DNA of 64,000 nt from a virus. The stretch is from the IMG/VR virus record IMGVR_UViG_3300009776_000830. One strand, written 5' to 3'. The translations under genes were made by a program, and so were the position numbers. This document shows, one piece after another, positions 13,452-59,798 of the stretch (its first letter is position 1; every line of letters starts with the position of its first letter). A model generated the notes under the pieces. The model saw only the letters and a list, made by a program, of their open reading frames with translations, was not told the origin of the DNA and made no database searches.

Positions 13452-13459
13452 TAATTTTG
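13452..13459 (+). promoter_or_regulatory. Bacteroidota-type -7 promoter box TAnnTTTG
   Basis: TAATTTTG 18 nt before ATG 13478; same box at 14473 and 56122. Confidence 0.5.
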
Positions 13460-13477
13460 TAAAAATAAAGAAAAATT

Positions 13478-13654: not shown

Positions 13655-13666
13655 ATTTACTTTGTT

Positions 13667-14434
13667 ATGATTTTTGAATATACTCCAGAAAAAATAGTTT
13701 CTTTGAAGCCAAATGAAATTTTTGTGTTTGGATCGAATGCTGAAGGCCGCCACGGAAAAGGAGCAGCTTTAGATGCTTTAAAATATTTTGGGGCAGTCTA
13801 CGGGCAACCAGATGGATTACAAATGCCTGCACATAAATTCGAAGGAAGAATGGTATATGCTTATGGGAAGCAGAAAAGAGATGACATAAAATCAATTAAT
13901 ACTATAGACGCGGTTGAATGTGGGGAAAGAAAAGCTACAACTCGTTTTTATTATGACGGGCATATCGATTATTGGGCTTCGGTAAATATAGGTGACATAA
14001 TAAAATGGGTTGGGGAACACAAAAACGTGTTGGTTAAAGTAACAAAACCACTGACAAAATTAGATGAAAATATTGATGCTGAAACTTGGAGTAAATTGGA
14101 AGGATGGAACGTAGAATATTTTTATAAAAACATAAAACCAAGAATATCATTAGCTTATCAAATGGAATTTGAGGTTCTCCCACAATCTTATGCTATAATA
14201 ACAAAAAAGGATTTTAGAAAAGAAAAATCATCTTCAATTGAAGAAATAAAAAACGGTATTATAAAAATGTTTCTCTTTGCTGATAAAAATCCCCATAAAA
14301 AACTGTTAGTGACTAAAATAGGGAGTTCACTAGCTGGATATACAGTGGATGAAATTAAAAATATCTTCGAAGAATTAAAAAATAAAATACCTGATAATGT
14401 TGTTCTACCAATAGAATATGAAGTGAGAGATTAA
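13667..14434 (+). CDS. Macrodomain-like phage protein (EIFVFGSN family) with an inserted ASCH-like domain
   Basis: EIFVFGSNAEGRHGKGAA..GAVYGQPDGLQ and QSYAIITK..VTKIGSSLAG separated by GERKATTR..IGDIIKW..EGW. Confidence 0.65.
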   Translation: MIFEYTPEKIVSLKPNEIFVFGSNAEGRHGKGAALDALKYFGAVYGQPDGLQMPAHKFEGRMVYAYGKQKRDDIKSINTIDAVECGERKATTRFYYDGHIDYWASVNIGDIIKWVGEHKNVLVKVTKPLTKLDENIDAETWSKLEGWNVEYFYKNIKPRISLAYQMEFEVLPQSYAIITKKDFRKEKSSSIEEIKNGIIKMFLFADKNPHKKLLVTKIGSSLAGYTVDEIKNIFEELKNKIPDNVVLPIEYEVRD

Positions 14435-43295: not shown

Positions 43296-45053
43296 ATGAT
43301 AATTGATACAAAAACAAAAATAAAATTGACTAAAAAATTAATTAATAAGTATAATTATAATGGAAATCCTGGTGATGTTATAGAGATTGATATCGAAAAT
43401 CTTCCAAATAATAGTATGAAATTAATAAAAGTTAAATGTGATATATGTGAGTCCGAAAGAAGCTTGCCGTATAGAACATATATGAAGAATTATTTAAAAT
43501 ACAATTTATATACGTGTTATGGTTGTAGTAGAATAAAATATGAAAAAACTTCCATTATTAAATTTGGGGTCAATAATCCAATGCAAAATGATGAAATAAA
43601 AAATAGATTAAAAGACACAATATTGAACAAATATGGAAGAGAATTTTATTTACAAACAGATGATAAAAAAGAAAAGGGTACTCAAACCTGCCTAACCAAA
43701 TATGGTGTTGAAAATCCGATGCAGGACACAAAAATAAAAAATAAGGCAAAAAACACAAAAAGAGAAAAATATGGAGATCATTATGAAAAGATAACAGAAA
43801 AAATAATAAAAACTAAAAAAGAGAAATATGGAGAGCATTATGAAAAGATAACAGAAAAAATAAATCTTACAAATGTAAAAAAATATGGATGTGATTATCC
43901 TTTACAAAATAAAGACATTTATAATAAATCTATAGAAACGTCAATTAATAAATATGGAATGCATCCAAATAAATGTTCGTTTATAAAAGATAAACAATTG
44001 ACGACATTATCAAATACCACTTTTCAAAAAATAAAAAACAAATATCCAGATATAAATTTTATATCTAAAGAGAACTGTCAATATACAATAAAATGTGACG
44101 ATTGTGGATTAGAGTATAAGATCAGTTTTAATTTATTTTTTCTTAGAAAATCAAACAATATAACGCTTTGCACTTTATGTAATGATCCAAAATTAAAACA
44201 TAAATCGGATTTTGAGCATCAAGTTATTAATTTTTTAGAAAAGAATGAAGTTAAATGTCAACCAAATTATAGAAAAATTTTAAATGGGAAAGAAGTAGAT
44301 ATATATCTTCCAGATTATAATATGGCTATTGAATGTAATGGGATTTTCTGGCATTCTGAATTATATAAATCAAAAAATTATCATAAAAATAAAAGCGAAG
44401 AATGTAAAAAAGTGGGGGTCGAACTTCTACACATATGGGAAGATGACTGGATATATAAACAAGATATAATAAAATCAATAATATTAAATAAATTAGGAAA
44501 AATAAAAAATAAAATTTATGCAAGAAAATGTGAAATATTAGAAATAAATGACAATAATATGGTTAAAAATTTTCTAGATGAAAATCATATTCAAGGATTT
44601 GTTAAATCTTCATTTAAAATTGGATTATTTTATAATAAAGAACTAGTTAGTTTGATGACTTTGGGTTATAGAATGATAAATTCTAAAAAAGAGTTTGAGC
44701 TCATAAGATTTTGTAATAAAAAATACACGAATGTAATAGGGTCAGCTAGTAGATTATTTAAAAATTTTATAGAAAAAATAAATAAACCATTTAAAATTAT
44801 CAGCTATTCCGATTCATCCCTTTTCAATGGTAATATGTATTTAAAAATTGGATTTGAATTAATTGGAGATACATCTTTAAATTATTATTGGGTTGTTGAT
44901 GGCATCAGAAACCATAGGTTCAAATATAATAAAAAAAAGTTAGTGATGATGGGAAATGATCCAAATAAAACAGAATATGAAATCATGACGGAGAATAATT
45001 ACTATAGGATATGGTCATGTGGAATGAAAAAATGGATATATGAAAGAAATTAA
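43296..45053 (+). CDS. Hef-like free-standing homing endonuclease (Zn ribbon, KYG repeats, Vsr/PD-(D/E)xK nuclease, conserved C-domain)
   Basis: VKCDICE, KYG repeats, EVDIYLPDYNMAIECNGIFWH, IWEDDW, NHIQG, ELIRFC, YRIWSCG. Confidence 0.85.
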   Translation: MIIDTKTKIKLTKKLINKYNYNGNPGDVIEIDIENLPNNSMKLIKVKCDICESERSLPYRTYMKNYLKYNLYTCYGCSRIKYEKTSIIKFGVNNPMQNDEIKNRLKDTILNKYGREFYLQTDDKKEKGTQTCLTKYGVENPMQDTKIKNKAKNTKREKYGDHYEKITEKIIKTKKEKYGEHYEKITEKINLTNVKKYGCDYPLQNKDIYNKSIETSINKYGMHPNKCSFIKDKQLTTLSNTTFQKIKNKYPDINFISKENCQYTIKCDDCGLEYKISFNLFFLRKSNNITLCTLCNDPKLKHKSDFEHQVINFLEKNEVKCQPNYRKILNGKEVDIYLPDYNMAIECNGIFWHSELYKSKNYHKNKSEECKKVGVELLHIWEDDWIYKQDIIKSIILNKLGKIKNKIYARKCEILEINDNNMVKNFLDENHIQGFVKSSFKIGLFYNKELVSLMTLGYRMINSKKEFELIRFCNKKYTNVIGSASRLFKNFIEKINKPFKIISYSDSSLFNGNMYLKIGFELIGDTSLNYYWVVDGIRNHRFKYNKKKLVMMGNDPNKTEYEIMTENNYYRIWSCGMKKWIYERN

Positions 45054-46818
45054 AAAAACAGTAGAAGAGCAATATGTTCAGCTAGAACATCGAGAACAAA
45101 TTCTTTTAAGACCAGACACCATAATAGGAAGCACCAAAACAGATGAGAGAGATCTGTTTGTTATGGATGGGGATAAAATCAAGATGAGAACGGTGAATTA
45201 TAATCCTGGTTTCTTTAAGATTTATGATGAAATTTTAACCAACGCATCCGATCATTATATTAGGACGAAACAAGTCAAATATATTAAAATTAATATTGAG
45301 GGCGATAATATATCAATAGAAAATGATGGGCCTGGTATACCAGTTCAAATTCATAAGAAAAAAAAGGTTTATGTACCGGAGCTTGTCTTTGGGCATCTTT
45401 TGACATCAGAAAACTATGATGACACCATAGAAAGGACTTGGGGTGGAAGAAATGGAATTGGTGGAAAAGCAACAAACATTTTCTCTAAAAAATTTATTAT
45501 CGAAACATCAGATGGTAAGAAAAAATATTATCAAGAATTTTTTGATAATATGTCTGACAAAACAAAACCAGAAATAATATCTAGTAGAAAAAATTATACA
45601 AAAATAAAGTTCTATCCAGATTTTTCAAGATTTGGAATATCCGATATAGATGGAAATATTCAAAATCTTATGATGCGGCGAGCAGTTGATGTTGCGGCAT
45701 ATTGCTCTGGCATAAAGATATACTTCAATGATACCATAATACCGATAAAGACATTCAAAGATTATATGAAAATGTATGAAATCGATGAGGATAACATTTT
45801 TTATGAAAAGATAAATGATAATTGGGAGATAGGAGTTTCAGCATCAGTAGATAATAATTTCAATCAAGTTTCTATGGTCAATGGCATATCTACCTATAAT
45901 GGTGGAACACACGTTAATATCATAATAAATCAAATAACAAAGGCTGTCCAAGAAATTTTATCTAAAAAATATAAAAACTTGAATATAAAGCCAGCTGACA
46001 TAAAAAATAGATTGTTTTTGTTTGTGAATTGTAAAATTGTCAATCCAGAGTTTAACGAGCAATCAAAAGAGACATTGAATACTAAAATTATAGATCAACC
46101 AAAAGTTTCAGACGCTTTAATAAAGAAAATAACTAGCTCGAATTTCATAAAGGAATTAGTGGATTTTTTACACGTCAAAGAAAGTTTGGACACAAAAAAG
46201 GAAATAGGAAAACATAAAATAAAAATTTCTAAACTGGATGACGCTCGTAAAGCTGGAACGTATGAGAGCGATAAATGTTATTTGACATTATGTGAAGGGG
46301 ACTCAGCCGCCGCTTCAGTTATGGCTGGACTTTCTGAAGTGGATTCGAGTTATTGGGGAATTTTTCCTTTAAGGGGGAAACCAATGAATGTTAGAGATGC
46401 AGCTCTTCAAAAAATAAGAGAAAATGAAGAAATAAAAAACATCATCAATATACTTGGCCTTGAATTTGGAAAAAAATATACAGATACATCAAAATTAAGA
46501 TATGGTAAAGTAGTATTAATGGCTGATGCAGACTGTATAGATGAAAACACAATGATTCTAACTAAAAGAGGATATGTGTCTATAAAAGATCTAAATTACG
46601 AGGATTGTGTCATGACTCATGAAAACAGATGGAAAAAAATTAAAAAAATTATAAAAACTAAGAAAACAAATCTGATTAAATTAACAATAAACAACGAAGA
46701 TTATTTTTTCGGAGAAAATCATGAGATTCCAGTGTTGAGAAATGGAGAAATCGTTTTAGTAAAAGTGAAGGATATATTAATTACTGATAAATTATTAAAA
46801 AGAAAAAACGAACTTTAA
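45040..46818 (+). CDS. Type IIA DNA topoisomerase N-half (GHKL ATPase, transducer, first part of TOPRIM; 498 aa) fused to a split-intein N-fragment
   Basis: EILTNASDH, ENDGPGIP, GGRNGIGGK, LCEGDSA, PLRGKPMNV, MADAD then CIDENT. Confidence 0.95.
   Translation: MKEIKKTVEEQYVQLEHREQILLRPDTIIGSTKTDERDLFVMDGDKIKMRTVNYNPGFFKIYDEILTNASDHYIRTKQVKYIKINIEGDNISIENDGPGIPVQIHKKKKVYVPELVFGHLLTSENYDDTIERTWGGRNGIGGKATNIFSKKFIIETSDGKKKYYQEFFDNMSDKTKPEIISSRKNYTKIKFYPDFSRFGISDIDGNIQNLMMRRAVDVAAYCSGIKIYFNDTIIPIKTFKDYMKMYEIDEDNIFYEKINDNWEIGVSASVDNNFNQVSMVNGISTYNGGTHVNIIINQITKAVQEILSKKYKNLNIKPADIKNRLFLFVNCKIVNPEFNEQSKETLNTKIIDQPKVSDALIKKITSSNFIKELVDFLHVKESLDTKKEIGKHKIKISKLDDARKAGTYESDKCYLTLCEGDSAAASVMAGLSEVDSSYWGIFPLRGKPMNVRDAALQKIRENEEIKNIINILGLEFGKKYTDTSKLRYGKVVLMADADCIDENTMILTKRGYVSIKDLNYEDCVMTHENRWKKIKKIIKTKKTNLIKLTINNEDYFFGENHEIPVLRNGEIVLVKVKDILITDKLLKRKNEL
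45055..45108 (+). repeat. Perfect 54-bp direct repeat, copy 2
   Basis: Identical to 43165..43218. Confidence 0.97.
46534..46815 (+). mobile_element. Split intein N-fragment (IntN, 94 aa)
   Basis: Cys1 block A CIDENTMILT directly after DAD; block B FGENHEI; ORF ends shortly after. Confidence 0.9.
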
Positions 46819-48480
46819 ATTTCCAGAGTCATATATTCTATAAATTTTTCTCTCAAGCATTATATCGTGTTCGGTCTTGCTCGGATCAAATCCTTGTTTA
46901 ACTAGCTCATCTTTTCTAAAACCAAATCTATGCTTTCTCACACCATCGATAATATAATAATAATTAGGCTCGGTCTTTCCAACAAGCTTGAAACCAAGTT
47001 TTTTATATAACTCTCCTTGACTCCAAGACCTGTCAGCATAGCTGGTCACTTCTTTTGGCTCAAAGTTTTTAACAAAAAATTTGAACAGTCTTGAAGCTCC
47101 TCCAACAACACTGGTGTTCAGCTTGTTACAGAACCTTAGCATCTCGTAGGATCCATCGTGTGAACTTTGTCCCATAGCCCTTCTCAAGCTTCCAAAGGTC
47201 ATTAAAGAAACAAGTTCTTCTTGATAAAAAAGACCGATCTTGATCTTTGAACCGACGAACCCTTGAATGTGGTTCGTTTCAAGGAAATCTTTAACTAATT
47301 TATTATTATTAACCTCTTTCATATCACATTTTCTAGCATAGATCTTATTTGGAGTCTTGTTCAACAAATTCAGAATTCTAGATTTAACGATTTCTTGTTT
47401 ATACAACCATTCATCCTCATAAATATGAATGAGTTTAATCTCTTGTTTTTCTGCTAGTTCAGTTTTTTCAAGATGATAATTGTTTGACTTGTTCAATTCA
47501 TTATGCCACCATATTCCATTAAATTCAAAAGCTATTTTTAAATCAGGTATATAAATATCTAGCTCACCGTTTATTGTTTTCCTATCTGATGATAAAACTT
47601 TATAATATTTTTCAATAAATTCTTTTACTTGAATTTGACCACCAGATGTATAATATGTTGGATTACAAATATTACAGATTTTCAATCCGGATCTGGCTCT
47701 ATTGTAGATGACATGTTTAGGCACAATGAATGTATGATCTTTTCCACAATCACATTTACATTCACACAAATTTGTATTTGATATTGATAAAATTGTAAGA
47801 ATTTTTTCAAAATTTTTTATAAATGATTCTTTAAATTTATCTTTACATTCAATAGTGTTATTATAATAATCGCCATATCTTTCTACACTTGTTTCATATT
47901 GTTTGTTTTTAAAATCTTTAAATTGAAGAGGATGTTCCACTCCATATTTTTCGAGAAGAACATTTTTTATTTTTACTTTGACTGACTCATCTTGAAATAA
48001 ATTTTCTACTCCGTATTTCTCCAAACATGTCTTTTTATATCTATCTTTAAAAATATTTGTTTTGCTTGTATGTTCAACTCCATATTTTTCTAAACATGTC
48101 TTTTTATATTTTTTTTTAACAATATCACTTTTCTTTGGGTGCGAAACTCCATATTTTTTCAATGATGACTTTTTAAGTTTTTCTTTTGTGTCGATATTCA
48201 AAGTTGAACATCTTGTAGAACAAAAAGTTCTATATCCTAATGTTTTATTTAAAAATTTAACTATTCTACCACATTCTTTACAAGTTGGAACATTATTCAT
48301 GTTATTAACGAATAAATAAACTTTTTCTTTAAAAGATAATCGATCAAAATCGAACTTATTCGAATAATCAACAATTTGTTCATAAATTTCATGACAATTT
48401 TTCATCAAATATTCTTCTCTGGAATATTTTCCAGAATCATTTTTTGTTAAATACAATTTTTCAAAATCAATTATTGTCAT
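46795..48480 (-). CDS. Hef-like homing endonuclease inverted between the intein halves
   Basis: PTCKECG, FCSTRC, KYG repeats, ELDIYIPDLKIAFEFNGIWWH, NHIQG, EMLRFC, YRIYDSG. Confidence 0.88.
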   Translation of the reverse strand: MTIIDFEKLYLTKNDSGKYSREEYLMKNCHEIYEQIVDYSNKFDFDRLSFKEKVYLFVNNMNNVPTCKECGRIVKFLNKTLGYRTFCSTRCSTLNIDTKEKLKKSSLKKYGVSHPKKSDIVKKKYKKTCLEKYGVEHTSKTNIFKDRYKKTCLEKYGVENLFQDESVKVKIKNVLLEKYGVEHPLQFKDFKNKQYETSVERYGDYYNNTIECKDKFKESFIKNFEKILTILSISNTNLCECKCDCGKDHTFIVPKHVIYNRARSGLKICNICNPTYYTSGGQIQVKEFIEKYYKVLSSDRKTINGELDIYIPDLKIAFEFNGIWWHNELNKSNNYHLEKTELAEKQEIKLIHIYEDEWLYKQEIVKSRILNLLNKTPNKIYARKCDMKEVNNNKLVKDFLETNHIQGFVGSKIKIGLFYQEELVSLMTFGSLRRAMGQSSHDGSYEMLRFCNKLNTSVVGGASRLFKFFVKNFEPKEVTSYADRSWSQGELYKKLGFKLVGKTEPNYYYIIDGVRKHRFGFRKDELVKQGFDPSKTEHDIMLERKIYRIYDSGNLKFVFSF

Positions 48481-48632
48481 ATGATTATATCATCTATATT
48501 TTTTCCTATTTTTTTAAAATAATTAAACAATATCCACTCTATAAGCTTTGACTTGTTTTTTGTATTATCATTTAACAGCTCTAATATTTTTGGATTTATT
48601 GTAAAAGTTGTTCCAATTTTTTTTGTTATCAT
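48477..48632 (-). CDS. Ribbon-helix-helix (CopG-like) protein, 51 aa; stop overlaps the endonuclease start (ATGA)
   Basis: Manual translation MITKKIGTTFTINPKILELLNDNTKNKSKLIEWILFNYFKKIGKNIDDIII. Confidence 0.7.
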   Translation of the reverse strand: MITKKIGTTFTINPKILELLNDNTKNKSKLIEWILFNYFKKIGKNIDDIII

Positions 48633-48707
48633 AAACTTTTTTTATTTGTATATATTAATATTTAAAAGTCAAAAACCATTATTTTTACAATTATTTTACA
48701 TTATTAT

Positions 48708-48818
48708 TTAAAGATGAATATGATCAACCACAACAACATCGACACTTTCTTTATTCATAGAACTCATTATGTCTATACAATCTCCTAAATATAATTCAAC
48801 ATTTTGAAATTTATCCAT
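48708..48818 (-). pseudogene. 5' stub (36 aa) of an N4/N6 DNA methyltransferase
   Basis: MDKFQNVELYLGDCIDIMSSMNKESVDVVVVDHIHL*: typical GDC..SVD..D(PPY) start, truncated where DPPY should be. Confidence 0.7.
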
Positions 48819-48931
48819 TTTTATTTTTTTTTATTTATATATTAAATTGAAAAACCATTATTTTTCCATTATTTTGTTTTTCAAACTATAAAATAATATT
48901 AAGATATATAAAAAAAAAATGATTATTGTTT

Positions 48932-49117
48932 ATGGTAAATAGATTAAAAAATGAAGAAAAACGGAAAAATCTTCCAGTTTCTTTAAATAGAAAATTATAT
49001 GATATTCTAGAAGAAGTTTGTGCCGAAAAAGATGTTAATAAATCAAAATTAGTGGAGAAACTGATAAGAGAATATCTAAAAGAAGAAAAAGGAATAGACA
49101 CAAGCTCTATAATATAA
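48932..49117 (+). CDS. Ribbon-helix-helix (CopG-like) protein, paralog of 48477..48632
   Basis: LPVSLNRKLYDILEEVCAEKDVNKSKLVEKLIREYL. Confidence 0.8.
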   Translation: MVNRLKNEEKRKNLPVSLNRKLYDILEEVCAEKDVNKSKLVEKLIREYLKEEKGIDTSSII

Positions 49118-49135
49118 AAAAGAAGCAAGAGAATA

Positions 49136-49285
49136 ATGGATTTAAATATAAAAGATTTTGAAGTTTTAAATATAGATAATATAAAGAAAATAGAAAAAGA
49201 AACCACAATGTATGATATCGAAGTGGAAGACGATAATACATTTTACATATCTAAAAATCAAAAAGATGATATATTAGTTCATAAT
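49136..49285 (+). mobile_element. Split intein C-fragment (IntC, 50 aa)
   Basis: Block F MYDIEVEDDNTFY, block G ILVHN followed by Cys+1. Confidence 0.92.
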
Positions 49286-51067
49286 TGTGATGGAGATCAT
49301 ATAAGGGGATTGATTATAAATCTTTTTGACACATTTTGGCCGGAACTTTTAAAATTAAATTTTATCTATGATTTCATAAGCCCTATAGTCAAGATCACAA
49401 ATGGAAAAACTGTAAAATATTTTTATAGATTAAGTGAATATCAAAAAGAAAAAGATAAATATAAGGGATTGGAAATCAAGTGGATAAAGGGGTTAGGCAC
49501 GATAAGTCCAGACGAAATGAAATTGTTTTTTAAAAATATTAAAAAACACCTCATTCCTTTTCATTATGACAATAAAGATACAGAAGAGCTCATTGATATG
49601 GTTTTCAACACGAAACGATCGGACGATAGAAAAGAATGGATGAAAAATTATGAGCCGAAAGATATTATAGATAAATTTTCAACAAAACAGACATTTGATA
49701 AATTTATAAACACAGAGCTTATGGAATGGAGTATGGCAGATAATAATCGTGTCATACCAAGTGCTATTGACGGATTGAAGCCTGGCCAGCGCAAAGTTAT
49801 TTATACTTTGTTTAAGAAGGGGCTCAAAGGAGAAATAAAAGTCAGTTCTTTATCAGGCTCTGTCATTCAGGATGCGGCTTATCATAATGGGAATGTTTCT
49901 ATTGAGCAAACCATAATAGGAATGGCTCAAGATTTTGTTGGCTCGAATAATTTGAATCTGATATTACCAAAGGGGCAATTTGGATCGCGTTTGAAAGGCG
50001 GAAGCGATGCGGCAGCATCTAGATATATTTTCACAAAATTTAACGATATAACTAGTTATATTTTTAGAAAAGAAGACAATGATATTTTAACATATCTAGA
50101 TGATGATGGATTTTTAATCGAACCAAAATATTACGTTCCGATTATACCAATGATATTAGTGAATGGAGCGAAGGGAATAGGTTCTGGTTATTCGACAGAG
50201 ATACCTTCATATAATCCTATGGATATAATAATCTATCTCCAAAATAAAATAAAGAAAAAGAAAAATATAGAATTAAATCCATTCTATAAAGATTTCAAAG
50301 GTGAGATAATCTTAGATATAGAAAATCGAAGATATATTACCAGGGGGGTTTTGAAAAAATTAAATGAAACAACATATGAAATAAATGAGCTTCCGATAGG
50401 AATTTGGAATTCAAATTACTATGAATTTTTGGATGAGCTGTCAGAAGATAAGAAAGATAAAAATGGAAAGATTATTCGTAAATCTATAATAAGAGATTGG
50501 AGCAAAAATGGTAATGATAAAGAAGTAAAAATAAAGATTTATTTTTATAAAGACATCGATGATGATTATTATAATGATATATTCAAAAATCTAAGATTAG
50601 AAACGTATGTTTCATTTAATAATATGCATCTTTTTGATAAAAATAAGAAGATAAAAAAATATAATAATCAGTATGAAATTATTGATGATTTTTATGAAAC
50701 GAGAATAGAATATTATGATAAAAGAAAAAATCATTTATTAGACGATTTAAATTATGATATTAGCGTTTTGAAAAACAGAATTATGTTTGTCAAAGCTGTT
50801 GTTGACGATAAGTTAGTTATAAACAAAAGAAGTCGCGAGCAAATAGAAAAAGATATAGCGTCTTTAAATCTAATGAAAATAAATGACTCATATTCATATT
50901 TATTGAATATGTCAATATCTAGTTTGACAAAGGAAAAGTTGATAGATTTAAAAGAAGAATATGACAAAAAAAAGAATGATTTAAAACTTTTGAAAGAAAA
51001 AACAATAGAAGATATGTGGTTGGAAGAACTAGAAATTTTAAAAAAGGAATTGAAAAAATATGAATGA
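49136..51067 (+). CDS. Split-intein C-fragment fused to topoisomerase II C-half (rest of TOPRIM + breakage-reunion domain, 593 aa)
   Basis: VHN|CDGDHIRGL, KWIKGLGT, IPSAIDGLKPGQRK, YHNG, AAASRYIF (catalytic Tyr), PMILVNGAKGIGSG. Confidence 0.95.
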   Translation: MDLNIKDFEVLNIDNIKKIEKETTMYDIEVEDDNTFYISKNQKDDILVHNCDGDHIRGLIINLFDTFWPELLKLNFIYDFISPIVKITNGKTVKYFYRLSEYQKEKDKYKGLEIKWIKGLGTISPDEMKLFFKNIKKHLIPFHYDNKDTEELIDMVFNTKRSDDRKEWMKNYEPKDIIDKFSTKQTFDKFINTELMEWSMADNNRVIPSAIDGLKPGQRKVIYTLFKKGLKGEIKVSSLSGSVIQDAAYHNGNVSIEQTIIGMAQDFVGSNNLNLILPKGQFGSRLKGGSDAAASRYIFTKFNDITSYIFRKEDNDILTYLDDDGFLIEPKYYVPIIPMILVNGAKGIGSGYSTEIPSYNPMDIIIYLQNKIKKKKNIELNPFYKDFKGEIILDIENRRYITRGVLKKLNETTYEINELPIGIWNSNYYEFLDELSEDKKDKNGKIIRKSIIRDWSKNGNDKEVKIKIYFYKDIDDDYYNDIFKNLRLETYVSFNNMHLFDKNKKIKKYNNQYEIIDDFYETRIEYYDKRKNHLLDDLNYDISVLKNRIMFVKAVVDDKLVINKRSREQIEKDIASLNLMKINDSYSYLLNMSISSLTKEKLIDLKEEYDKKKNDLKLLKEKTIEDMWLEELEILKKELKKYE

Positions 51068-51864: not shown

Positions 51865-52266
51865 ATGAATTTGAAAAAATTTGAGGGATTCGATAATAAA
51901 AAAGATCTAGAGACATCGGTGTTACAAAATCTTCTTGAATTATCCAAGGATGAAAAAAAATTTGATAAAGCTGTTGTGGCTTTGTATATGAATAGTTCTA
52001 TATCAATGGAGGTTATAAACTCCTTTTACGAATCAATAGGTAGAAAATCTATATTGGAAGACGATCCATTTGGTGAAGATGCTGATTTACCAGCACCTCC
52101 AAGGCGATCACCGACACGATTTTTTGATGCTTGTCATACTACAACTACAAGAACAGTTGGTTGTGGTGGCGGCGCTGGTCAGGAAGCGGCTCATCGGCCA
52201 AGAAGAAGAGGAAGAGCTAGAGGTTTCGGAATAAGTTGTGGCGGCAATCAAGGAGGAGGATGTTAA
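51865..52266 (+). CDS. CTS-like protein with Gly/Cys/Arg-rich C-terminal tail (possible modified-peptide precursor)
   Basis: MNLKKFEGF, DDPFGED, C-terminal VGCGGG..ISCGGNQGGGC. Confidence 0.65.
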   Translation: MNLKKFEGFDNKKDLETSVLQNLLELSKDEKKFDKAVVALYMNSSISMEVINSFYESIGRKSILEDDPFGEDADLPAPPRRSPTRFFDACHTTTTRTVGCGGGAGQEAAHRPRRRGRARGFGISCGGNQGGGC

Positions 52267-53158
52267 ATTCATTTTTATGATTTTATTTGATAAGGAAATA
52301 CCAATAAGAACTCATCATTGTAGTGTGTTTGATCAACCACCGAAAGAGGTTGAAATCCCTTATGTTAATTTGTATATAAGATTCAAAGGATGTAATGCCA
52401 AATGTAAATTTTGTGAATATTCTGACACAGCGAATAAATTTAATATTGAAAAATTTAAATTCATATTAGAAGAATTAAAGAAAAATATAAGCATTAAAAA
52501 AGTTTCTTTGACTGGGGGCGAACCAACATTAAATTTCGATAAATTTAAAGAAATTACTCTTCTTGCAAACGAAATATTGAACGAGTCAGCTTTTGTGTTG
52601 AACACTAATGGATTTAATTTACAAAAAATATTTAATGATGAAGTTTTGGGATATATTGATAATATATCAATAAGTCGCCACCATTATAATGATGATTTGA
52701 ATAATGAGATCTTGGGATTAAATACGATAAGATCTAGTGAATTAAAAGAATATGCTGCCGAATACGAAGATACTGAATTATTACATTTTAGTTGTAATTT
52801 AACAAAAGGATATATAGATTCGAAAAAAGAAATATTAAAATATTTGGAATATACGAATGATACTAATGTGCATAGTGTTGGTTTTGTTCAACTTATGCCT
52901 ATAAATGATTATTGTAAAGAACATTTCGTTCATATTGATTTAGATTCTTTATTAAGTAAAAGATTTAATTTGTTGAAAAGAACAAAAAAACTAGGGGCCT
53001 GTGAATGCAATAATTACGTCTATATACCAAAGAAAATGAAAAATTCTGCTGTAAGAGTATATTATAAAAATACTTATTTTCCAGAAAAAATGATAAATGA
53101 TCTAACTTTCGATGGCGAAAATCTTTTTTACGGATTCGATGGTGTAAAAATTGTTTAA
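52238..53158 (+). CDS. Radical SAM enzyme (likely start ATG 52277)
   Basis: CNAKCKFC (CxxxCxxC), SLTGGEPT, LNTNG, ISISRHH. Confidence 0.92.
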   Translation: MAAIKEEDVKFIFMILFDKEIPIRTHHCSVFDQPPKEVEIPYVNLYIRFKGCNAKCKFCEYSDTANKFNIEKFKFILEELKKNISIKKVSLTGGEPTLNFDKFKEITLLANEILNESAFVLNTNGFNLQKIFNDEVLGYIDNISISRHHYNDDLNNEILGLNTIRSSELKEYAAEYEDTELLHFSCNLTKGYIDSKKEILKYLEYTNDTNVHSVGFVQLMPINDYCKEHFVHIDLDSLLSKRFNLLKRTKKLGACECNNYVYIPKKMKNSAVRVYYKNTYFPEKMINDLTFDGENLFYGFDGVKIV

Positions 53159-53190
53159 TCTTTTGTTTTTTTATTGTCTATATAATTTTT

Positions 53191-54174
53191 ATGTTTAAAG
53201 AAGGTTTAGTTTGTGGTAAATTTGAAGTGTTGCATAAAGGACATTTAGCTCTAATAGATTTTGCTAGAAATAGATGTGATAAACTGAATATTTTATTATG
53301 TTCGAATGAAAAATATGAATTGATACCTGGTCGAACAAGATTTCAATGGTTAAAAGAAACATATAAATATGACAATAAAATTAATGTGGAATATACAGAT
53401 GTAGATTTGCCATATACTTCTGAATCAAATAGAGATGTTGCTGAAGTTTGGTCGAATTATTTCAAAAAATTATATCCAGAATTATATGTCATATTTACTT
53501 CAGAAAAATATGGTGATTATGTTGCTGAATACATGAAAATCGAGCATATTATGTTTGATGAAAAAAGAATTTCAAAACCAATAAGCTCGACAGAAATAAT
53601 AAAAAGACCTCTATCAAATTGGGATTTTATATCAGATGTGGCCAAACCATATTTTGTTAAAAAAATTGTTTTATTTGGAACTGAATCAACTGGAAAATCC
53701 ACCTTCTCAGAAAAACTAGCTAAAGAGTTTTCAACAAATTGTGTTCTTGAAAGATCTAGAGATATAATGACAAATACAGATACTTGCACTTATGAAGATA
53801 TGTTTATTTTAGCCGAAATGCATTCCAATGATATAAATAAAGGCATTATAAATTCAAACAAGATGATTTTTGTAGATACAAATATAGAAACTATAAAAGT
53901 TTATTCCGATTTCTTATTTAATAAGAAACCGTCATTTAAAAATTGGATCGAACAATCGAACAAGGCTGATTTATATATATTTTTATCAAACGACGCCCCA
54001 TATGTTCAAGATGGAACCAGGCTCAATTTAGAAAGAAGAAATAGATTGAATGATATGGAATTAGAACACTTGATAAAAAATAATCTAAACTTTGAAATCG
54101 TAAAAGGACAGAATTGGGACGAAAGGTATCAAAAAGCTATTCAAATAATTAAAAAATTTAAAGAAAATTTATGA
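53191..54174 (+). CDS. nadR: NadR-like bifunctional NMN adenylyltransferase / nicotinamide-riboside kinase (no HTH)
   Basis: GKFEVLHKGH (HxGH), FTSEKYG, Walker A GTESTGKST, FVDTN, YVQDGTR. Confidence 0.88.
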   Translation: MFKEGLVCGKFEVLHKGHLALIDFARNRCDKLNILLCSNEKYELIPGRTRFQWLKETYKYDNKINVEYTDVDLPYTSESNRDVAEVWSNYFKKLYPELYVIFTSEKYGDYVAEYMKIEHIMFDEKRISKPISSTEIIKRPLSNWDFISDVAKPYFVKKIVLFGTESTGKSTFSEKLAKEFSTNCVLERSRDIMTNTDTCTYEDMFILAEMHSNDINKGIINSNKMIFVDTNIETIKVYSDFLFNKKPSFKNWIEQSNKADLYIFLSNDAPYVQDGTRLNLERRNRLNDMELEHLIKNNLNFEIVKGQNWDERYQKAIQIIKKFKENL

Positions 54175-56111
54175 AAAAATTATTACTCATTTTATTATTG
54201 TTTTCCACTTGCTTTTTAATGTATGGTCAAGACACCATCAATTTAAAAGAAGTAGATATTATATCTTTTTATAGAGCGGACAAAAAGATACCAGTAACAC
54301 AAAAAACTGCAATTACTGAAAATTCTTATACAGAAGAGGTTCCGATATATCTATCAAAAACACCATCTATAACATCAAATTCTGATGGTGGTCATAATAT
54401 AGGATATTCCTATATGAGACTTAGAGGAATAGATCAAACAAGAATAAATTTTACTTTAGATGGAATACCTTTAAATGAGCCTGAGGATCAAGGCTTTTAT
54501 TCATCTAATTTTCCTGATTTTGTCGCATCAACATCTTCAACACAGATTATAAGGGGAGTCGGTCCTTCAAATTATGGAGTGTCTTCTTATGTGGGTTCAG
54601 TTAATTTTGAAAGTAAGAATTTGCCAGATTCAGCATATCTAAAATTAATAAGAGATTTTGGATCTTATAACACAAACAAAAGAGGATTCGAAATAAATAC
54701 TGGTTCTTTAAAAAATCTAGCCCTTTATTATAGAATATCTAGTATGAATACAGATGGTTATAAAGAACATTCTGGTTCTGATGGATACTCGAGTTTTTTT
54801 AAAATAGGATACTTTAAAAAAAATGATATTTTTAAATTTTCATTTTTCAATGGTAATGTTAATAATAATCTGGCTTGGTATGGTGTAACAAAAAAAGAGA
54901 TAGAGGATTATGGTAGAAGATATAATGCAAATACAATTAACGAAGATGATGAATATAAAGAAACTCTCGCATATCTACAATATATTCATAACATAAATAA
55001 TAAATCAGATATAACAACATCTGTATATTACAGCAAATTAGATGGTTATTGGGCTTATGATTATGGAGATATAATAAAATATAATGTTAGATCTAATTTA
55101 TACGGACTAACAACAAATTATGTTTTTAATAAGAATAATTTCAAAATAAATGTCGGCATAAATGGGAGCACATATAATAGATTACATTTTGGCGAAACGA
55201 ATATAAAATTATATGAGAACAAAGGAATAAAAAACAATTTGAATACTTATTCAAAATTATCTTATTCGAAAAGAAATTTTACAACTTATATTGATCTGCA
55301 AGAGTCTTTTATTAGTTATGATTATGTGAAAGACATAATAGATCCAATATCGGTTGGTATGAATAAGAAGGAATGGCGGTTCTTTAATCCAAAAGCTGGT
55401 TTATCATACAATTTTAATAATAATAAAATATATTTATCAGTAGGTAAAATGCAACGTGAACCAACTCGGGCAGATATGTTTGGTGGGTTAGATAATTTAG
55501 ATGTGAATAATATAAATTTCACCAATATATCTCCAGAAGATGTTATTGATTATGAAATTGGTTTAAATATTGATAAAAAATCATTAAAATATAATTTGAA
55601 TTATTTCTATATGGATTTCAATAATGAAATAACATTGTCCGGTGCATTAGGTCAAAATGGTTTGCCGTTAATGACGAGTGTGGATCGAAGTTTTCGATCT
55701 GGATTTGAGAGCGATTTAGATGTTTTATATAAGAACTTTGAATTAAACAACAATTTTACTTTTATGTACAATGAAATAAAAACTGACTCTGGTAATTTCA
55801 AACCAGTTATGACACCAGATTTTTTAATAAACACATCTTTAACTTACAATTATAAAAAATTTGAATTATCTATGACACATAAATATATATCAAAACGATA
55901 TATAGATCTAGAGAATACATCAACTTTAGATCCATTTCAAGAACTCGGTATGAACTTAAAATATAAAACTAAAAATTTTGACATTTCTTTTATTACAAAT
56001 AATTTGACCAATGAAAAGAATTTTTCAACAGCTTACTTGAGTTATGGTGAAATTTTATATATGGTTTCTGCTGAAAGAAATTATTATTTATCTTTAATTT
56101 TTAAATTATAA
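54171..56111 (+). CDS. TonB-dependent outer-membrane receptor (Bacteroidetes vitamin-uptake type)
   Basis: Signal peptide; plug SDGG..GYSYMRLRGIDQTRINFTLDGIPLNEPEDQ, QIIRGVGPS; FFNPKAG, PEDVIDYEIG; C-terminal beta-signal. Confidence 0.88.
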   Translation: MKKLLLILLLFSTCFLMYGQDTINLKEVDIISFYRADKKIPVTQKTAITENSYTEEVPIYLSKTPSITSNSDGGHNIGYSYMRLRGIDQTRINFTLDGIPLNEPEDQGFYSSNFPDFVASTSSTQIIRGVGPSNYGVSSYVGSVNFESKNLPDSAYLKLIRDFGSYNTNKRGFEINTGSLKNLALYYRISSMNTDGYKEHSGSDGYSSFFKIGYFKKNDIFKFSFFNGNVNNNLAWYGVTKKEIEDYGRRYNANTINEDDEYKETLAYLQYIHNINNKSDITTSVYYSKLDGYWAYDYGDIIKYNVRSNLYGLTTNYVFNKNNFKINVGINGSTYNRLHFGETNIKLYENKGIKNNLNTYSKLSYSKRNFTTYIDLQESFISYDYVKDIIDPISVGMNKKEWRFFNPKAGLSYNFNNNKIYLSVGKMQREPTRADMFGGLDNLDVNNINFTNISPEDVIDYEIGLNIDKKSLKYNLNYFYMDFNNEITLSGALGQNGLPLMTSVDRSFRSGFESDLDVLYKNFELNNNFTFMYNEIKTDSGNFKPVMTPDFLINTSLTYNYKKFELSMTHKYISKRYIDLENTSTLDPFQELGMNLKYKTKNFDISFITNNLTNEKNFSTAYLSYGEILYMVSAERNYYLSLIFKL

Positions 56112-56146
56112 AATAATTTTTTACTTTTGTAAAAATAAAAAAAAAA

Positions 56147-56557
56147 ATGAATGTAAGAGTTGGTGTCGGTGTAATAGTCTATTATGAAAACAAAATTTTT
56201 CTATTGAAACGACAAGGCTCGCACGGATCTGGTGAATGGAGTTTTCCAGGAGGACATTTAGAATATTTTGAAACATTAGAAGATTGTGCCTGTCGCGAAG
56301 TCAAAGAAGAATTAGATATTGAAATAGAAAATTTGAAATTTCTGACCATAACCAATGATATTTTCGAAAAGGAGAATAAACATTACATAACAATATATTT
56401 TACATCAGACTATAAATCAGGTGATTATAAAATAATGGAGCCAGATAAAGCTACTGATATCGGACTATTTGATAAAAATGAATTGCCCGAGCCATTGTTT
56501 CTTCCAATAAGGAATTTGTTAGAAAATGAAAAAAAATTGAATTATAAATATTTATGA
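56147..56557 (+). CDS. Nudix hydrolase (MutT/NUDT15-like)
   Basis: WSFPGGHLEYFETLEDCACREVKEE Nudix box; MEPDK. Confidence 0.93.
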   Translation: MNVRVGVGVIVYYENKIFLLKRQGSHGSGEWSFPGGHLEYFETLEDCACREVKEELDIEIENLKFLTITNDIFEKENKHYITIYFTSDYKSGDYKIMEPDKATDIGLFDKNELPEPLFLPIRNLLENEKKLNYKYL

Positions 56558-56730
56558 CAAACAAAGAAGAATATGTTATTTTATACTATGAGTCTCTATT
56601 TGGGGATGATATTTCTTTGCAAAAAATAATTTTTGATAAACATATAATATATCTCTGTGAAAAAACTGGCTATAAAAAAGAAGAAATATTGGAAATCGTA
56701 AAAAAATATATAGATGAAAAAAATTCATAA
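56554..56730 (+). CDS. Small hypothetical protein (58 aa)
   Basis: Manual translation MTNKEEYVILYYESLFG..; ATGA overlap with the Nudix gene. Confidence 0.55.
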   Translation: MTNKEEYVILYYESLFGDDISLQKIIFDKHIIYLCEKTGYKKEEILEIVKKYIDEKNS

Positions 56731-56943
56731 ATGCCATTATTTACAACTTTAAAAAGAGTTATGACCGAATATGGTGAAATAAGAATGGTAGCGGATAGAA
56801 GAATAGAGTGTTCGAGTTGGGATAAAGCCGAAGAAATTTGTAGAAGATTTTATCCTGATCTAGTGGTAGATGGAGAATTTGTTGAAGAAATTCAAATTGC
56901 TGAGCATTTTGTAGAGAATATAAAAAAATCCAACTTTTTATAG
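56731..56943 (+). CDS. Small hypothetical protein
   Basis: ORF track, abuts the previous stop. Confidence 0.6.
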   Translation: MPLFTTLKRVMTEYGEIRMVADRRIECSSWDKAEEICRRFYPDLVVDGEFVEEIQIAEHFVENIKKSNFL

Positions 56944-56957
56944 AGTTGGATTTTTTT
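56922..56957. terminator. Bidirectional terminator hairpin
   Basis: AAAAAAATCCAACT / AGTTGGATTTTTTT perfect 14-bp inverted repeat between convergent genes. Confidence 0.8.
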
Positions 56958-56976
56958 ATAATTTTTCAAGCCATTA

Positions 56977-58604: not shown

Positions 58605-59228
58605 TTACATCATTAATATTCTTAATCTTCCGAATTCTAATCCACAAACAGCTATTGGGGTGGAGTAATTTCCTGTTGCAACATTATTTCCTAGCATCCC
58701 ACCACTAGCCGGCCCCCAAGCCCAAATATTGTTGTGATTATCTAATGCGTAACAGTTATAACTAAGTGCTTTTATTTGACAAAATGTATGAGCTCCGCAA
58801 ACAGCAACTGGAGTTGAATAACAAACAGTTGAATTATTACCTAGTGATCCATAATAATTATATCCCCAAGCCCAAGCTTTTCCATCTTTATCTATAGCGA
58901 GTGTAGTGTGTTCACCACAAGATATTTGACAAAATGTGTGTGCTCCACAAACTGCGATTGGAGTTGAATAAGAAACTGTTGAGTTGTTACCTAGATAACC
59001 AAAATCGTTGGATCCCCAAGTCCAAGCTTTTCCGTTTTTATCTATGGATGATGAATGTCCAGCATTTCCAGTAAAATATTTTCCAGCTGATATGTGACAA
59101 AAAGTGTGTGCTCCGCAGACAGCGATTGGTGTACTCTTTCCTACAGTGGAATTATCACCCAACTCACCATATAGATTGGTTCCCCACCCCCAAGCTTTTC
59201 CATTTTTATCTATTGCTAAAGTATACAT
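58605..59228 (-). CDS. RCC1-repeat protein, four blades
   Basis: Four AW.WG.N.YG.LG.NST..STP.AVCG repeats. Confidence 0.85.
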   Translation of the reverse strand: MYTLAIDKNGKAWGWGTNLYGELGDNSTVGKSTPIAVCGAHTFCHISAGKYFTGNAGHSSSIDKNGKAWTWGSNDFGYLGNNSTVSYSTPIAVCGAHTFCQISCGEHTTLAIDKDGKAWAWGYNYYGSLGNNSTVCYSTPVAVCGAHTFCQIKALSYNCYALDNHNNIWAWGPASGGMLGNNVATGNYSTPIAVCGLEFGRLRILMM

Positions 59229-59243
59229 TATATTTTTTATTTT

Positions 59244-59798
59244 TTATACAGTTATAGCTAAACCAGCTGATATGTGACAAAAAGTGTGTGCTCCGCAGAC
59301 TGCAACGGGCATAGATTTATTAACTCCTGTGTTGTCTCCAATAGAACTAGTGGAATTATTCCCCCACCCCCAAGCTTTTCCATTTTTATCTATGGCAAAT
59401 GATGTTCCAGCATAACTTTCTATTTTACAAAAAGTGTGTGCTCCGCAAACTGCAACTGGAGTTGAATAACAAGTAGTCGAATTATTACCTAATGATCCAT
59501 AAAAATTTTCTCCCCAAGCCCAAGCTTTTCCTTGATGGTCTATAGCGAGTGATATCATATAATTGGAGTTACTCATTTCACAAAAAGTGTGAGCTCCACA
59601 AACAGCAACTGGAGTTGAATAACAAGTAGTCGAATTATTACCTAATGATCCATAAAAATTTTCTCCCCAAGCCCACTCGTCGCCTGATATATCTATGGCT
59701 GATGTCGCAGATAATTTACTATATCTCCTTGGTTCTGCGGTCGGGGTAAGAAATACTTCACAAGTAGTTATTTTTATTATTGGATTTAGTTGAGCCAT
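59244..59798 (-). CDS. RCC1-repeat protein, three blades
   Basis: Three repeats of the same consensus, two nearly identical at DNA level. Confidence 0.85.
   Translation of the reverse strand: MAQLNPIIKITTCEVFLTPTAEPRRYSKLSATSAIDISGDEWAWGENFYGSLGNNSTTCYSTPVAVCGAHTFCEMSNSNYMISLAIDHQGKAWAWGENFYGSLGNNSTTCYSTPVAVCGAHTFCKIESYAGTSFAIDKNGKAWGWGNNSTSSIGDNTGVNKSMPVAVCGAHTFCHISAGLAITV

Follow-up and report, generated by a model that had tools for sequence, protein, structure and literature searches.

A TonB-dependent receptor paired with a NadR-like enzyme in a Bacteroidota megaphage: a probable outer-membrane extension of NARP3-type NAD+ salvage

Described routes for pyridine and vitamin uptake

Uptake of NAD and nicotinamide riboside (NR) by Haemophilus influenzae involves the OmpP2 porin, the periplasmic nucleotidases NadN and e(P4), PnuC and NadR. 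For thiamine, Bacteroides reportedly carry an OMthi-PnuT-TPK operon under a TPP riboswitch. Phage NAD+ rebuilding by NARP2, with NadV-NatV of KVP40, starts from nicotinamide via Nampt with no import step, and has an NMNAT paired with a Nudix domain. In NARP3, the PnuC-like transporter Bas30_87 and the HTH-less NadR Bas30_86 of phage TrudiRoth import NR, rebuild NAD+ and defeat Sir2-HerA (Sci Adv 2026, PMC13464706). A preprint on outer-membrane proteins (OMPs) of huge phages describes a transcribed 22-strand TonB-dependent receptor in Lak phages, and NMN-transporter genes among the neighbours of large-barrel OMPs (bioRxiv 10.64898/2026.10.24.761521).

We have analysed a 64-kb megaphage fragment (the whole stretch is called the window below), related to LR745206, LR756501, LR756502 and the Lak phages, in which a NadR-like gene is paired with a gene for a TonB-dependent outer-membrane receptor (TBDR). 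The pair probably constitutes NARP3-type NAD+ salvage with an added outer-membrane step in a Bacteroidota megaphage, and most likely extends NARP3 to the cell surface, which makes it a variation on a strategy already known, not a new strategy. The earlier note on this DNA had proposed an NAD-precursor importer plus NadR as a third phage strategy; the pairing and the receptor family spoke for the importer, but the claim to a third strategy fell with the publication of PnuC plus NadR as NARP3 (PMC13464706). Novelty is reduced since NARP3 (August 2026) and the preprint (October 2026) came before, and the advance is incremental because salvage chemistry and phage TBDRs had both been published.

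With NARP3 the module shares an HTH-less NadR with two domains (RNK and NMNAT), in which K10/F11, HxGH, Walker A and DG(x)R are conserved, and the proposed logic of NR entering, being trapped as NMN and adenylated to NAD+; related megaphages also hold PnuC directly beside NadR. It differs by the TBDR, the text of PMC13464706 containing neither 'TonB' nor 'outer membrane', by Bacteroidota instead of Enterobacteriaceae as hosts, by an Ile at the arginine of ISxTxxR, and by being known from sequence; furthermore, the two-gene PnuC-NadR cassette was not found in the window, which holds NadR only. The H. influenzae route likewise leads from envelope to cytosol and ends in PnuC and NadR, but it uses a passive porin and periplasmic hydrolases where the module would have an energised TBDR and has no nucleotidase. 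The thiamine operon also combines a TonB-dependent receptor, a Pnu-family channel and a cytoplasmic trapping kinase, whereas the module lacks a TPP riboswitch and has a full NMNAT plus RNK NadR and NAD-related neighbours. The survey of huge-phage OMPs concerns the same gene class in the same phage group, but takes an envelope-protein view and favours receptor-landscape roles; its accessible text ties the receptor neither to NadR or NAD+ rebuilding nor to the cellular TBDR-PnuC-NadR family (bioRxiv 10.64898/2026.10.24.761521).

The gene string and its products

The phage genes of the window include a baseplate hub/tail lysozyme, MT-A70, an aminoacyl-tRNA synthetase and a topoisomerase II split by homing endonucleases. 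The three core open reading frames, of 327, 646 and 136 aa, lie on the + strand and encode the NadR-like enzyme (53191..54174), the TBDR (54171..56111) and a small Nudix hydrolase (56147..56557). They are preceded on the same strand by a radical SAM gene (52238..53158; Pfam Radical_SAM and Fer4_12; likely true start ATG 52277) and followed by two small co-directional frames of 58 and 70 aa (56554..56943, +), neither hydrophobic, which end the gene string. Intergenic gaps are short, and a terminator-like hairpin of 19 pairs followed by a T-run (56919..56960, +) stands between convergent gene blocks and probably marks the 3' end of the transcription unit. The nadR stop and the TBDR start overlap as ATGA at 54171-54174, read directly in the sequence, just as the earlier note had described for the overlap and the Nudix gene behind it; the two genes are thus predicted to be translationally coupled. 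In the 69% relative L007 the gene order is identical, similar-sized frames likewise trail the Nudix gene, and dN/dS values of the cassette genes against it are 0.11-0.17 (radical SAM 0.11, receptor 0.13, NadR 0.14). The phage cassette genes are intact and under purifying selection.

The NadR-like protein begins at its N-terminal NMN adenylyltransferase domain (NMNAT; Pfam CTP_transf_like, E 5.6e-9), followed by a C-terminal ribosylnicotinamide kinase (RNK; AAA_28, E 1.8e-22), and it matches PHROG 3462 (E 1.4e-70). The N-terminal HTH repressor domain of the trifunctional enterobacterial enzymes is absent, with no HTH match in Pfam and the NF005988 match beginning at profile position 65. Full-length matches were obtained with E. 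coli NadR 8x7f (2e-36), 9x6f (1e-31) and H. influenzae NadR 1lw7; chain 9x6f was equated with the NARP3 enzyme Bas30_86 solely on the basis of its name and two entries. Scores lie below the NCBIfam equivalog cut-offs (TIGR01526, 179.5 vs 341.15 bits; NF005988, 156.9 vs 201), albeit with full-length alignments. The NMNAT motif (H/T)xGH is present in GKFEVLHKGH, with H15, G17 and H18 invariant in the alignment, and the RNK motifs (Walker A GTESTGKST, Walker B FVDT, LID QDGTR) occupy invariant columns throughout. The ISxTxxR motif, on the other hand, reads ISSTEII, with Ser and Thr kept and Arg replaced by Ile137. L007 also has Ile, whereas Arg is found in the megaphage loci L001, L002, L003 and L008, in Lak-A1, in E. 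coli NadR and in 9x6f, and NMNAT activity may therefore be weakened in the window lineage.

The receptor matches the Pfam plug (PF07715, 30.8 bits vs a cut-off of 23.9) and barrel (TonB_dep_Rec_b-barrel, PF00593, 65.4 bits vs 27). Its AF2 model (pLDDT 84.2, pTM 0.83) has a complete plug and barrel, the plug region being both modelled and conserved. Downstream of the N-terminus MKKLLLILLLFSTCFLMYGQ stands LKEVDII, which on sequence reading alone aligns with the family consensus LxxVxxxG, so that the protein appears to consist of a signal peptide, a TonB-box-like segment, a plug and a 22-strand-type barrel. Full-length TM scores of 0.80-0.83 were observed to PqqU (9c4o), FecA and YncD, but these matches to siderophore, PQQ and copper transporters are generic, and at 12-16% identity they are uninformative on substrate. 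Phage TBDRs are uncommon in deposited genomes, as the earlier note had it: they occur in 24 of 50,697 records, all from megaphages or gut fragments.

Michniewski et al. gave the receptor of LR745206 and Mar_Mega_1 the label SusC and suggested that it takes up carbohydrate (PMC9723777). Proteins of the SusC/RagA type are about 1000 aa long, carry a carboxypeptidase-regulatory-like domain at the N-terminus as well as a SusC/RagA signature, and are encoded next to a SusD-like lipoprotein. The window receptor does not fit this type: it has 646 aa, Plug and barrel as its only Pfam domains and no match of any kind in NCBIfam, SusC/RagA included, and no SusD-like neighbour was found in the window or in relatives.

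The Nudix protein (PF00293, 77.4 bits, E 1.3e-21) has an intact Nudix box, GHLEYFETLEDCACREVKEELDI (REVKEE), in which a final G to D is the only change from Gx5Ex7REUxEExGU. Its best solved relatives, 4kyx, NUDX1 and NUDT15, point to a generic MutT/NUDT15/NUDX1-like enzyme. L007 has an orthologue at the equivalent position (73% identity, 17-aa N-terminal deletion), and a distinct Nudix gene adjoins the cluster of LR756502 (35% identity over 65 aa). NAD-specific Nudix enzymes are marked by a family-level score or by an extra domain (zinc/NADH motif, NMNAT fusion or C-terminal wHTH). Scores here were 39 vs 158 for NudC and 29.6 or less vs 354-449 for NadM-Nudix, and an NrtR-type wHTH was excluded since 136 aa leaves no room for it. 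The suggestion that the Nudix gene belongs to the NAD salvage route thus found no support. The likeness to NARP2 lies in NAD+ rebuilding by a phage and in a Nudix gene near the NMNAT, but here the Nudix is a separate MutT-like protein far below the NadM-Nudix cut-offs.

The radical SAM protein resembles viperin and PFL-AE at the level of the core only. Orthologues adjoin NadR in L007 (67% identity), LR745206 (L001; 42%) and LR756502 (L002; 47%) and were absent from 80 cellular loci of the receptor family. It is a conserved NadR neighbour in megaphages to which no role in the NAD route is assigned; it might add a step on the imported pyridine compound.

Receptor and NadR linkage in megaphages and cells

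The 80 cellular Bacteroidota loci encode receptors 36-42% identical to the window receptor over about 640 aa, full-length. In the tree, the receptors of the window and L007 pair within a starred clade of phage and cellular members, the phage receptors nesting among the cellular ones, and the window receptor keeps all of the 100+ invariant columns of its family. It is accordingly placed in the Bacteroidota TBDR family linked to PnuC and NadR. The 300 relatives in species genomes lie nearly always beside PnuC-NadR, and no description of a cellular TBDR-PnuC-NadR cluster was found in the searchable literature.

Enough downstream DNA for gene order was available at 74 of the 80 loci. TBDR, PnuC and NadR follow each other on one strand in 59/74 and TBDR is followed by NadR in a further 9, so that NadR begins 33-752 nt downstream of the TBDR in 68/74. 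All adjacent NadR-like genes (71/71) encode two domains, including an NMNAT with GKFxPxHxGH, and never a kinase alone. NAMPT occurs in 14/80 loci, NrtR in 13/80 and Prs in 11/80, with Mucilaginibacter loci among these, and one Bacteroidia MAG has the order NrtR-Prs-NADAR-Tpt1-...-NAMPT-Macro-TBDR-PnuC-NadR. For the TBDR-NadR arrangement without PnuC, all five genomes tested have PnuC elsewhere, suggesting that the pair can work without a linked PnuC. Rfam searches of the window, of 10 sampled cellular loci and of 9 others (7 phage-like, 2 MAG) detected no riboswitch, TPP or otherwise, and a THI-box pattern was absent from all 80 cellular loci. Thiamine, given in the earlier note as an optional substrate, is therefore disfavoured, since TPP riboswitches are missing and the NadR partners have two domains, a full NMNAT plus RNK.

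TBDR-PnuC-NadR clusters with overlapping genes are present in LR745206, LR756502 and LR756501, the last preceded by NadE and followed by an isochorismatase (PncA-like) gene. Metagenomic contigs of the sister clade have the same order, PnuC being present in L090 and L091. In Lak-A1, NadR-PnuC and a distant family member (29% identity) share a strand and are 5 kb apart. The TBDR-NadR pairing thus recurs in four other megaphage lineages and in the 68/74 cellular loci, which is far beyond chance, and it is conserved in relatives where the earlier note had named loss of conservation as a reason to abandon its reading. The window shares partner genes and an overlapping arrangement with the cellular clusters, but its order is NadR before TBDR, it has neither PnuC nor the NrtR regulator, and its neighbours are the megaphage-specific radical SAM gene and the small Nudix gene.

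The cluster is rearranged in the lineage of the window and L007, with no linked pnuC. As the earlier note had remarked for the window, pnuC was not detected there, neither by tblastn with three megaphage PnuCs nor as a frame with 4 or more TM-like segments. Nor was a pnuC or multi-pass membrane frame seen in the 10 kb before and the 2 kb after the window, about 75 kb of contig being covered in total. The inner-membrane step of the window phage is consequently unaccounted for.

Proposed route and alternative purposes

We propose that a Bacteroidota-infecting megaphage acquired an auxiliary NAD+-salvage module from its host phylum. The phage-made TBDR would reach the outer membrane by the host Sec/BAM machinery, be energised by host TonB-ExbBD, and carry a pyridine nucleoside or nucleotide, likeliest NR and possibly NMN or an NAD-derived compound, into the periplasm. 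The precursor would cross the inner membrane via PnuC, either the host's own or one encoded elsewhere in the unfinished phage genome; in related megaphages the channel is encoded between the TBDR and NadR genes. Finally, conversion to NMN by the kinase domain of the NadR-like enzyme would trap the precursor, and the NMNAT domain would adenylate this NMN to NAD+. NAD+ could thus be raised or restored during a long megaphage infection, and NAD+-depleting defences blunted as well; a purpose against Thoeris or SIR2 is speculative. Import of an NAD precursor by the receptor is well supported by the genomic context, and we regard as evenly balanced the fuller proposition that Bacteroidota megaphages build an energised outer-membrane gate for NR (or NMN) which feeds NARP3-type NAD+ reconstitution.

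If true, the 'SusC/carbohydrate uptake' label of megaphage receptors would change to NAD-precursor import, and NARP3 would extend to the outer membrane of diderm hosts, in which vitamin entry may be limited by small porins, with an external vitamin pool within reach even where the host outer membrane otherwise restricts access. Among phage pathways of metabolism or counter-defence it would be the first to begin at the outer membrane, and it would bear on megaphages facing NAD+-depleting immunity in Bacteroidota of gut, sludge and digester. A widespread Bacteroidota TBDR family would also gain a testable substrate, relevant to vitamin-B3 cross-feeding in microbiomes.

The same import and salvage chemistry could supply the NAD+-consuming enzymes of the phage while it infects a nutrient-limited host over a long time, rather than serve counter-defence, a possible but rather unlikely reading. 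Jumbo phages widely encode NAD+ synthesis and many NAD+-consuming enzymes, with pnuC in 68 of 174 'NAD-jumbo phages' (PMC11662467), and in cells the module forms part of housekeeping salvage operons of the NrtR type; moreover, no anti-defence gene was recognised beside the module, PADLOC giving weak pVip-like and PDC-S07 matches only. The homologous two-gene NARP3 module, however, rescues phages from Sir2-HerA (PMC13464706), and the two purposes are compatible and inseparable by sequence.

It is improbable that the receptor instead remodels the surface, masking or displacing host receptors for superinfection exclusion or to prevent adsorption of progeny to the lysing cell, with the NadR adjacency merely reflecting a copied host operon. 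Such a role would fit the loss of linked PnuC in the window lineage, the frequent use of TBDRs as phage receptors (FhuA with T5 pb5 and FhuA with the superinfection-exclusion lipoprotein Llp were among the structural matches), and the wide occurrence of phage-encoded OMPs in huge phages, for which the preprint considers a possible role in interference at the receptor level, with reference to lambda Lom/LamB (bioRxiv 10.64898/2026.10.24.761521). On the other hand, megaphage lineages with receptors only 29-47% identical have retained NadR, and usually PnuC, as linked genes, the rearrangement in the window lineage preserved the apparent translational coupling of NadR and TBDR, and the plug and every invariant column of the transport family are retained, needlessly for a mere decoy. 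Import of thiamine, a carbohydrate (SusC type), iron or B12, with NadR either unrelated to the uptake or phosphorylating a different vitamin, is very improbable: the SusC label, the JGI label 'iron complex outermembrane receptor' of homologues and the closest folds would agree with it, but the loci scanned lack riboswitches and THI-boxes, their NadR partners carry an NMNAT, their neighbours are NAMPT, NrtR, Prs, NadE and the PncA-like gene, and the receptor has neither the length nor the partner of a SusC.

As to transcription of the NAD+-salvage module, only short contigs of 99% identity were seen, in one metatranscriptome, and these may stem from DNA carry-over. One low-depth contig from a different sample apparently skips the radical SAM, NadR and TBDR genes, suggesting that this cassette is dispensable.

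A receptor gene coupled to nadR

Three consecutive genes on the + strand, placed as in the earlier note, were confirmed as open reading frames. The first, at 53191-54174, encodes a NadR-like protein of 327 aa with the Pfam domains CTP_transf_like and AAA_28, i.e. the NadR architecture without the HTH. It is followed by a gene for a TonB-dependent receptor (TBDR) at 54171-56111 (646 aa; Pfam Plug and TonB_dep_Rec_b-barrel, both above gathering scores) and by a Nudix gene at 56147-56557 (136 aa; Pfam NUDIX). The stop of NadR overlaps the start of the receptor gene in the ATGA at 54171-54174, a radical SAM gene ends 32 nt ahead of NadR, and 35 nt separate the receptor from the Nudix gene. Two small ORFs follow, and a terminator-like hairpin of 19 pairs (56919-56960) stands ahead of a convergent block. 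In PHROGs, the NadR-like gene matches nicotinamide-nucleotide adenylyltransferase (E 1.4e-70), and no family was found for the receptor.

The window was compared with L007, the nearest relative locus, whose receptor is 69% identical. All four genes of the radical SAM-NadR-TBDR-Nudix block gave dN/dS values of 0.11-0.17, with dS near saturation, and are under purifying selection. A scan for sigma-70-type promoters was uninformative (77 sites versus 67.7 expected), Bacteroidota and phage promoters lying outside its scope. Short contigs, 99% identical, from one activated-sludge metatranscriptome run cover 53086-53236 (the NadR start) as well as 54273-54504 and 54561-54711 (inside the receptor gene). 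Since these are contigs only, and DNA carry-over is possible, they are a hint of transcription at most and are not counted as expression; uncovered stretches of the window carry no meaning.

Some contigs depart from the window. In a low-depth contig from one activated-sludge run, position 52088 is connected to 56106 through 13 other letters; this contig thus skips the radical SAM, NadR and receptor genes and keeps Nudix. Two runs have contigs that part from the window after 54190, and the loose end is the same in both. On this thin evidence, there may be strain variants that lack the receptor cassette or carry a replacement. Upstream of the radical SAM gene lies an ORF of 133 aa, whose C-terminal third (52090-52266) is locally G+C-rich and Gly/Arg-rich. 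This third takes in the GTG annotated as the radical SAM start, and the left end of the possible cassette deletion falls at the same place.

Gene order in phage and cellular relatives

In the huge phages LR745206 and LR756502 the genes are overlapping and ordered TBDR-PnuC-NadR, PnuC being the inner-membrane channel for nicotinamide riboside (NR). The corresponding cluster of LR756501 reads NadE-TBDR-(205-aa ORF)-PnuC-NadR-(116-aa ORF)-isochorismatase/PncA-like, and PnuC in all three clusters matches PF04973 (E 1e-44 to 1e-48). Metagenomic contigs with receptors from the sister clade of the window receptor carry either TBDR-PnuC-NadR or TBDR-PnuC with NadR 4.5 kb further; the genes around them are phage-like, and one contig also has a tRNA array. 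In Lak-A1 the receptor precedes NadR-PnuC by 5 kb, with both on one strand. L007 exhibits exactly the order of the window, radical SAM-NadR-TBDR-Nudix, again without PnuC. The pairing of receptor and NadR, from which the earlier note had started, is thus kept in all these relatives, and the gene orders shared by the phages show that the association is conserved down to 29% receptor identity. Judged from the same orders, the window lineage shows a derived rearrangement in which the NadR-TBDR coupling was kept and the linked channel lost.

A different arrangement was observed in a phage-like metagenomic contig (L091, 539-10569), where CoaC-like (Flavoprotein) and CoaB-like (DFP) genes separate TBDR-PnuC from NadR, and a further cytidylyltransferase-like gene comes after NadR. 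This stretch may be a broader cofactor-salvage island.

Cellular relatives were collected with a profile from 25 receptor homologues, which was run on species genomes and gave 300 relatives. The best 80 of these 300 are almost all from Bacteroidota, and complete chromosomes as well as isolates (Chitinophaga, Zobellia, Flavobacterium, Flammeovirga, Flexithrix, Dysgonomonas and Mucilaginibacter) are among them. Gene order was counted in the 74 of these 80 loci with at least 1.7 kb of downstream DNA. TBDR, PnuC and NadR follow each other on one strand in 59/74 loci, NadR comes directly after the receptor in nine, and neither PnuC nor NadR is present in the remaining six. NAMPT was found in 14, NrtR in 13 and Prs in 11 of the 80 loci, and the locus of one Bacteroidia MAG (L008) reads NrtR-Prs-NADAR-Tpt1-Metallophos-NDT-NAMPT-Macro-TBDR-PnuC-NadR. 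No published description of a cellular TBDR-PnuC-NadR cluster was found in the literature searched, and the NrtR paper is silent on one. In L008, which belongs to a 575-kb contig, an array of 11 tRNA genes lies directly after the operon, together with WYL, S24-peptidase and RNase T genes (10097-13824).

Phage and cellular sequences are interleaved in a tree of 99 receptors. The window and L007 belong to a starred clade of 11 rows whose members are phage-like metagenomic sequences; this clade is nested in a starred 28-row clade with LR745206, LR756502 and the cellular NrtR/NAMPT-linked group. The possibility that the cellular NrtR-NAMPT-TBDR clade (that of L008) is a misbinned megaphage was considered. 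The cellular label is retained because the contig of a close clade member measures 1.0 Mb and the cluster also occurs in isolates. A window phage protein had no match in MAGs of this clade, a non-match that carries no weight there.

The absence of pnuC from the window, remarked on in the earlier note, was borne out by tblastn, which gave no match to PnuC, and by the lack of any ORF with at least four TM-like segments. Nor is PnuC called in the gene tables for 10 kb upstream and ~2 kb downstream; the absence holds for the window plus these flanks. PnuC is encoded elsewhere in the genome in 5/5 cellular genomes with NadR directly after the receptor, and an arrangement without PnuC is therefore not disqualifying. 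Our working inference is that the channel is supplied by the host or encoded distally in the phage.

Substrate of the receptor and relation to known systems

By reading of its sequence, the receptor carries a putative signal peptide and a TonB-box-like segment, and it keeps all of the 100+ invariant columns of its family. The AF2 model (pLDDT 84.2, pTM 0.83) exhibits a full plug and barrel, with a TM score of 0.83 to PqqU. A PDB sequence search gave no match, and a fold search returned generic TonB-dependent transporters only, at 12-16% identity, a level at which the substrate is not readable from the fold.

The receptor homologue of LR745206 was published as SusC, i.e. carbohydrate uptake (PMC9723777), a reading that is unsupported for a protein of 646 aa with plug and barrel only, no SusC/RagA NCBIfam match and no SusD neighbour. 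Thiamine, the alternative substrate in the earlier note, is disfavoured. All 71 NadR-like genes beside receptors are two-domain (300-368 aa) with the NMNAT motif GKFxPxHxGH, and 66 of them have a strict Walker A. The THI-box pattern occurs in none of the 80 cellular loci, and Rfam gave no riboswitch for the window, for a sample of 10 cellular loci or for nine further loci (seven of them phage-like). These results speak against a thiamine-type (TPP-riboswitch) operon and for a receptor cluster of the NAD type.

Judged by its conserved context in cells and phages, the receptor is probably the outer-membrane component of a salvage route for NR (or NMN) with NadR as its last step. The import-based NAD+ salvage proposed earlier is thus partly supported: the receptor-NadR context stands, the inner-membrane step is missing here, the link to Nudix is unsupported, and a defence-related purpose is putative.

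In a study from August 2026, phage PnuC together with HTH-less NadR was shown to take up NR, restore NAD+ and overcome Sir2-HerA, and the route was named NARP3 (PMC13464706); TonB and the outer membrane are not mentioned in that paper. The window module would be alike in working, but has an extra putative outer-membrane step and is without the inner-membrane PnuC. Jumbo-phage NAD+ synthesis was described in 2024 with no mention of TonB; 68 of the 174 'NAD-jumbo phages' carried pnuC (PMC11662467). An October 2026 preprint lists 1,603 beta-barrel OMPs from huge phages, reports a 22-strand TonB-dependent receptor transcribed in Lak phages, and notes NMN-transporter genes among large-barrel OMP neighbours (bioRxiv 10.64898/2026.10.24.761521). 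The present analysis adds the reassignment of megaphage 'SusC' receptors, a substrate hypothesis for a large Bacteroidota transporter family, a derived gene order without PnuC, and a radical SAM neighbour that is conserved and has no role assigned.

The window NadR has full-length matches to E. coli NadR (8x7f), to 9x6f, which judged by its name and two entries is probably the NARP3 enzyme, and to the NadR proteins of H. influenzae and L. lactis. It conserves K10/F11, HxGH, Walker A, the Walker B Asp and DGTR. The window and L007 have Ile at the Arg position of ISxTxxR, and all other relatives have Arg there; the window protein scores below the NCBIfam equivalog cut-offs. By these residues and scores, the kinase half looks sound and the adenylyltransferase half may be weakened.

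Neighbouring genes and the megaphage setting

The Nudix box is intact, and the protein is closest to a MutT-like protein from Rickettsia (4kyx), to plant NUDX1 and to NUDT15, and not to NudC, NadM-Nudix or NrtR. The Nudix adjoining the LR756502 cluster is a different one. The gene is not assigned to the NAD+ route in which the earlier note had included it. A remnant of NrtR was also rejected (22% identity over 105 aa, no wHTH).

The radical SAM gene (52238-53158, likely start 52277) adjoins NadR in four megaphage loci at orthologue level (42-67% identity), with orthologues at 3430-4329 in L007, 8733-9632 in the LR745206 locus and 8941-9828 (- strand) in the LR756502 locus. It is found at 0/80 cellular TBDR loci. 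Its similarity to viperin and PFL-activase is confined to the radical-SAM core, and the Atlas clusters of its family are mostly viral. The gene, whose protein has no assigned function, may have been added to the module specifically in phages.

The window has a G+C content of ~28% and encodes a baseplate hub/tail lysozyme, MT-A70, and topoisomerase II genes interspersed with homing endonucleases. A Glu/Gln-tRNA-synthetase-like gene (722-2323; PF00749 and Anticodon_2) and two adjoining tRNA-Val genes (6328-6482; anticodons TAC and CAC) are present, such translation genes being typical megaphage content. The window is part of a 190,656-bp JGI contig and of a 168-kb ENA contig. For NadR and receptor alike, the phages that rank first as relatives are huge and uncultured, namely LR745206 (635 kb), LR756502 (642 kb) and LR756501/3 (735 kb), and the Prevotella Lak megaphages rank next; an IMG/VR scan with the receptor gave no relative. 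Among runs holding at least 30% of its words, small-share runs (wetland and others) being left out, the DNA occurs in anaerobic-digester, activated-sludge and wastewater samples, which gives a hint at its habitat. Gene content, huge-phage relatives, contigs and runs together identify the window as a megaphage fragment, probably from a phage of Bacteroidota, with a full genome presumably above 500 kb.

Between 59884 and 64000 the G+C content is 44-48%, a jump from the ~28% before. A + strand ORF exceeding 1372 aa exits the window, long - strand ORFs are also open, and gene callers picked - strand genes. Directly before this jump, two adjacent RCC1/WD40_RLD-repeat proteins (207 and 184 aa) are encoded on the - strand (58605-59798). 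Within 43296-51067, two large homing-endonuclease-like genes (43296-45053, +; 46795-48480, -; PHROG 3339/559, DUF7487) flank and separate the topoisomerase II genes, one GyrB-like (45040-46818) and one with TOPRIM_C and topoIV-A (49136-51067).
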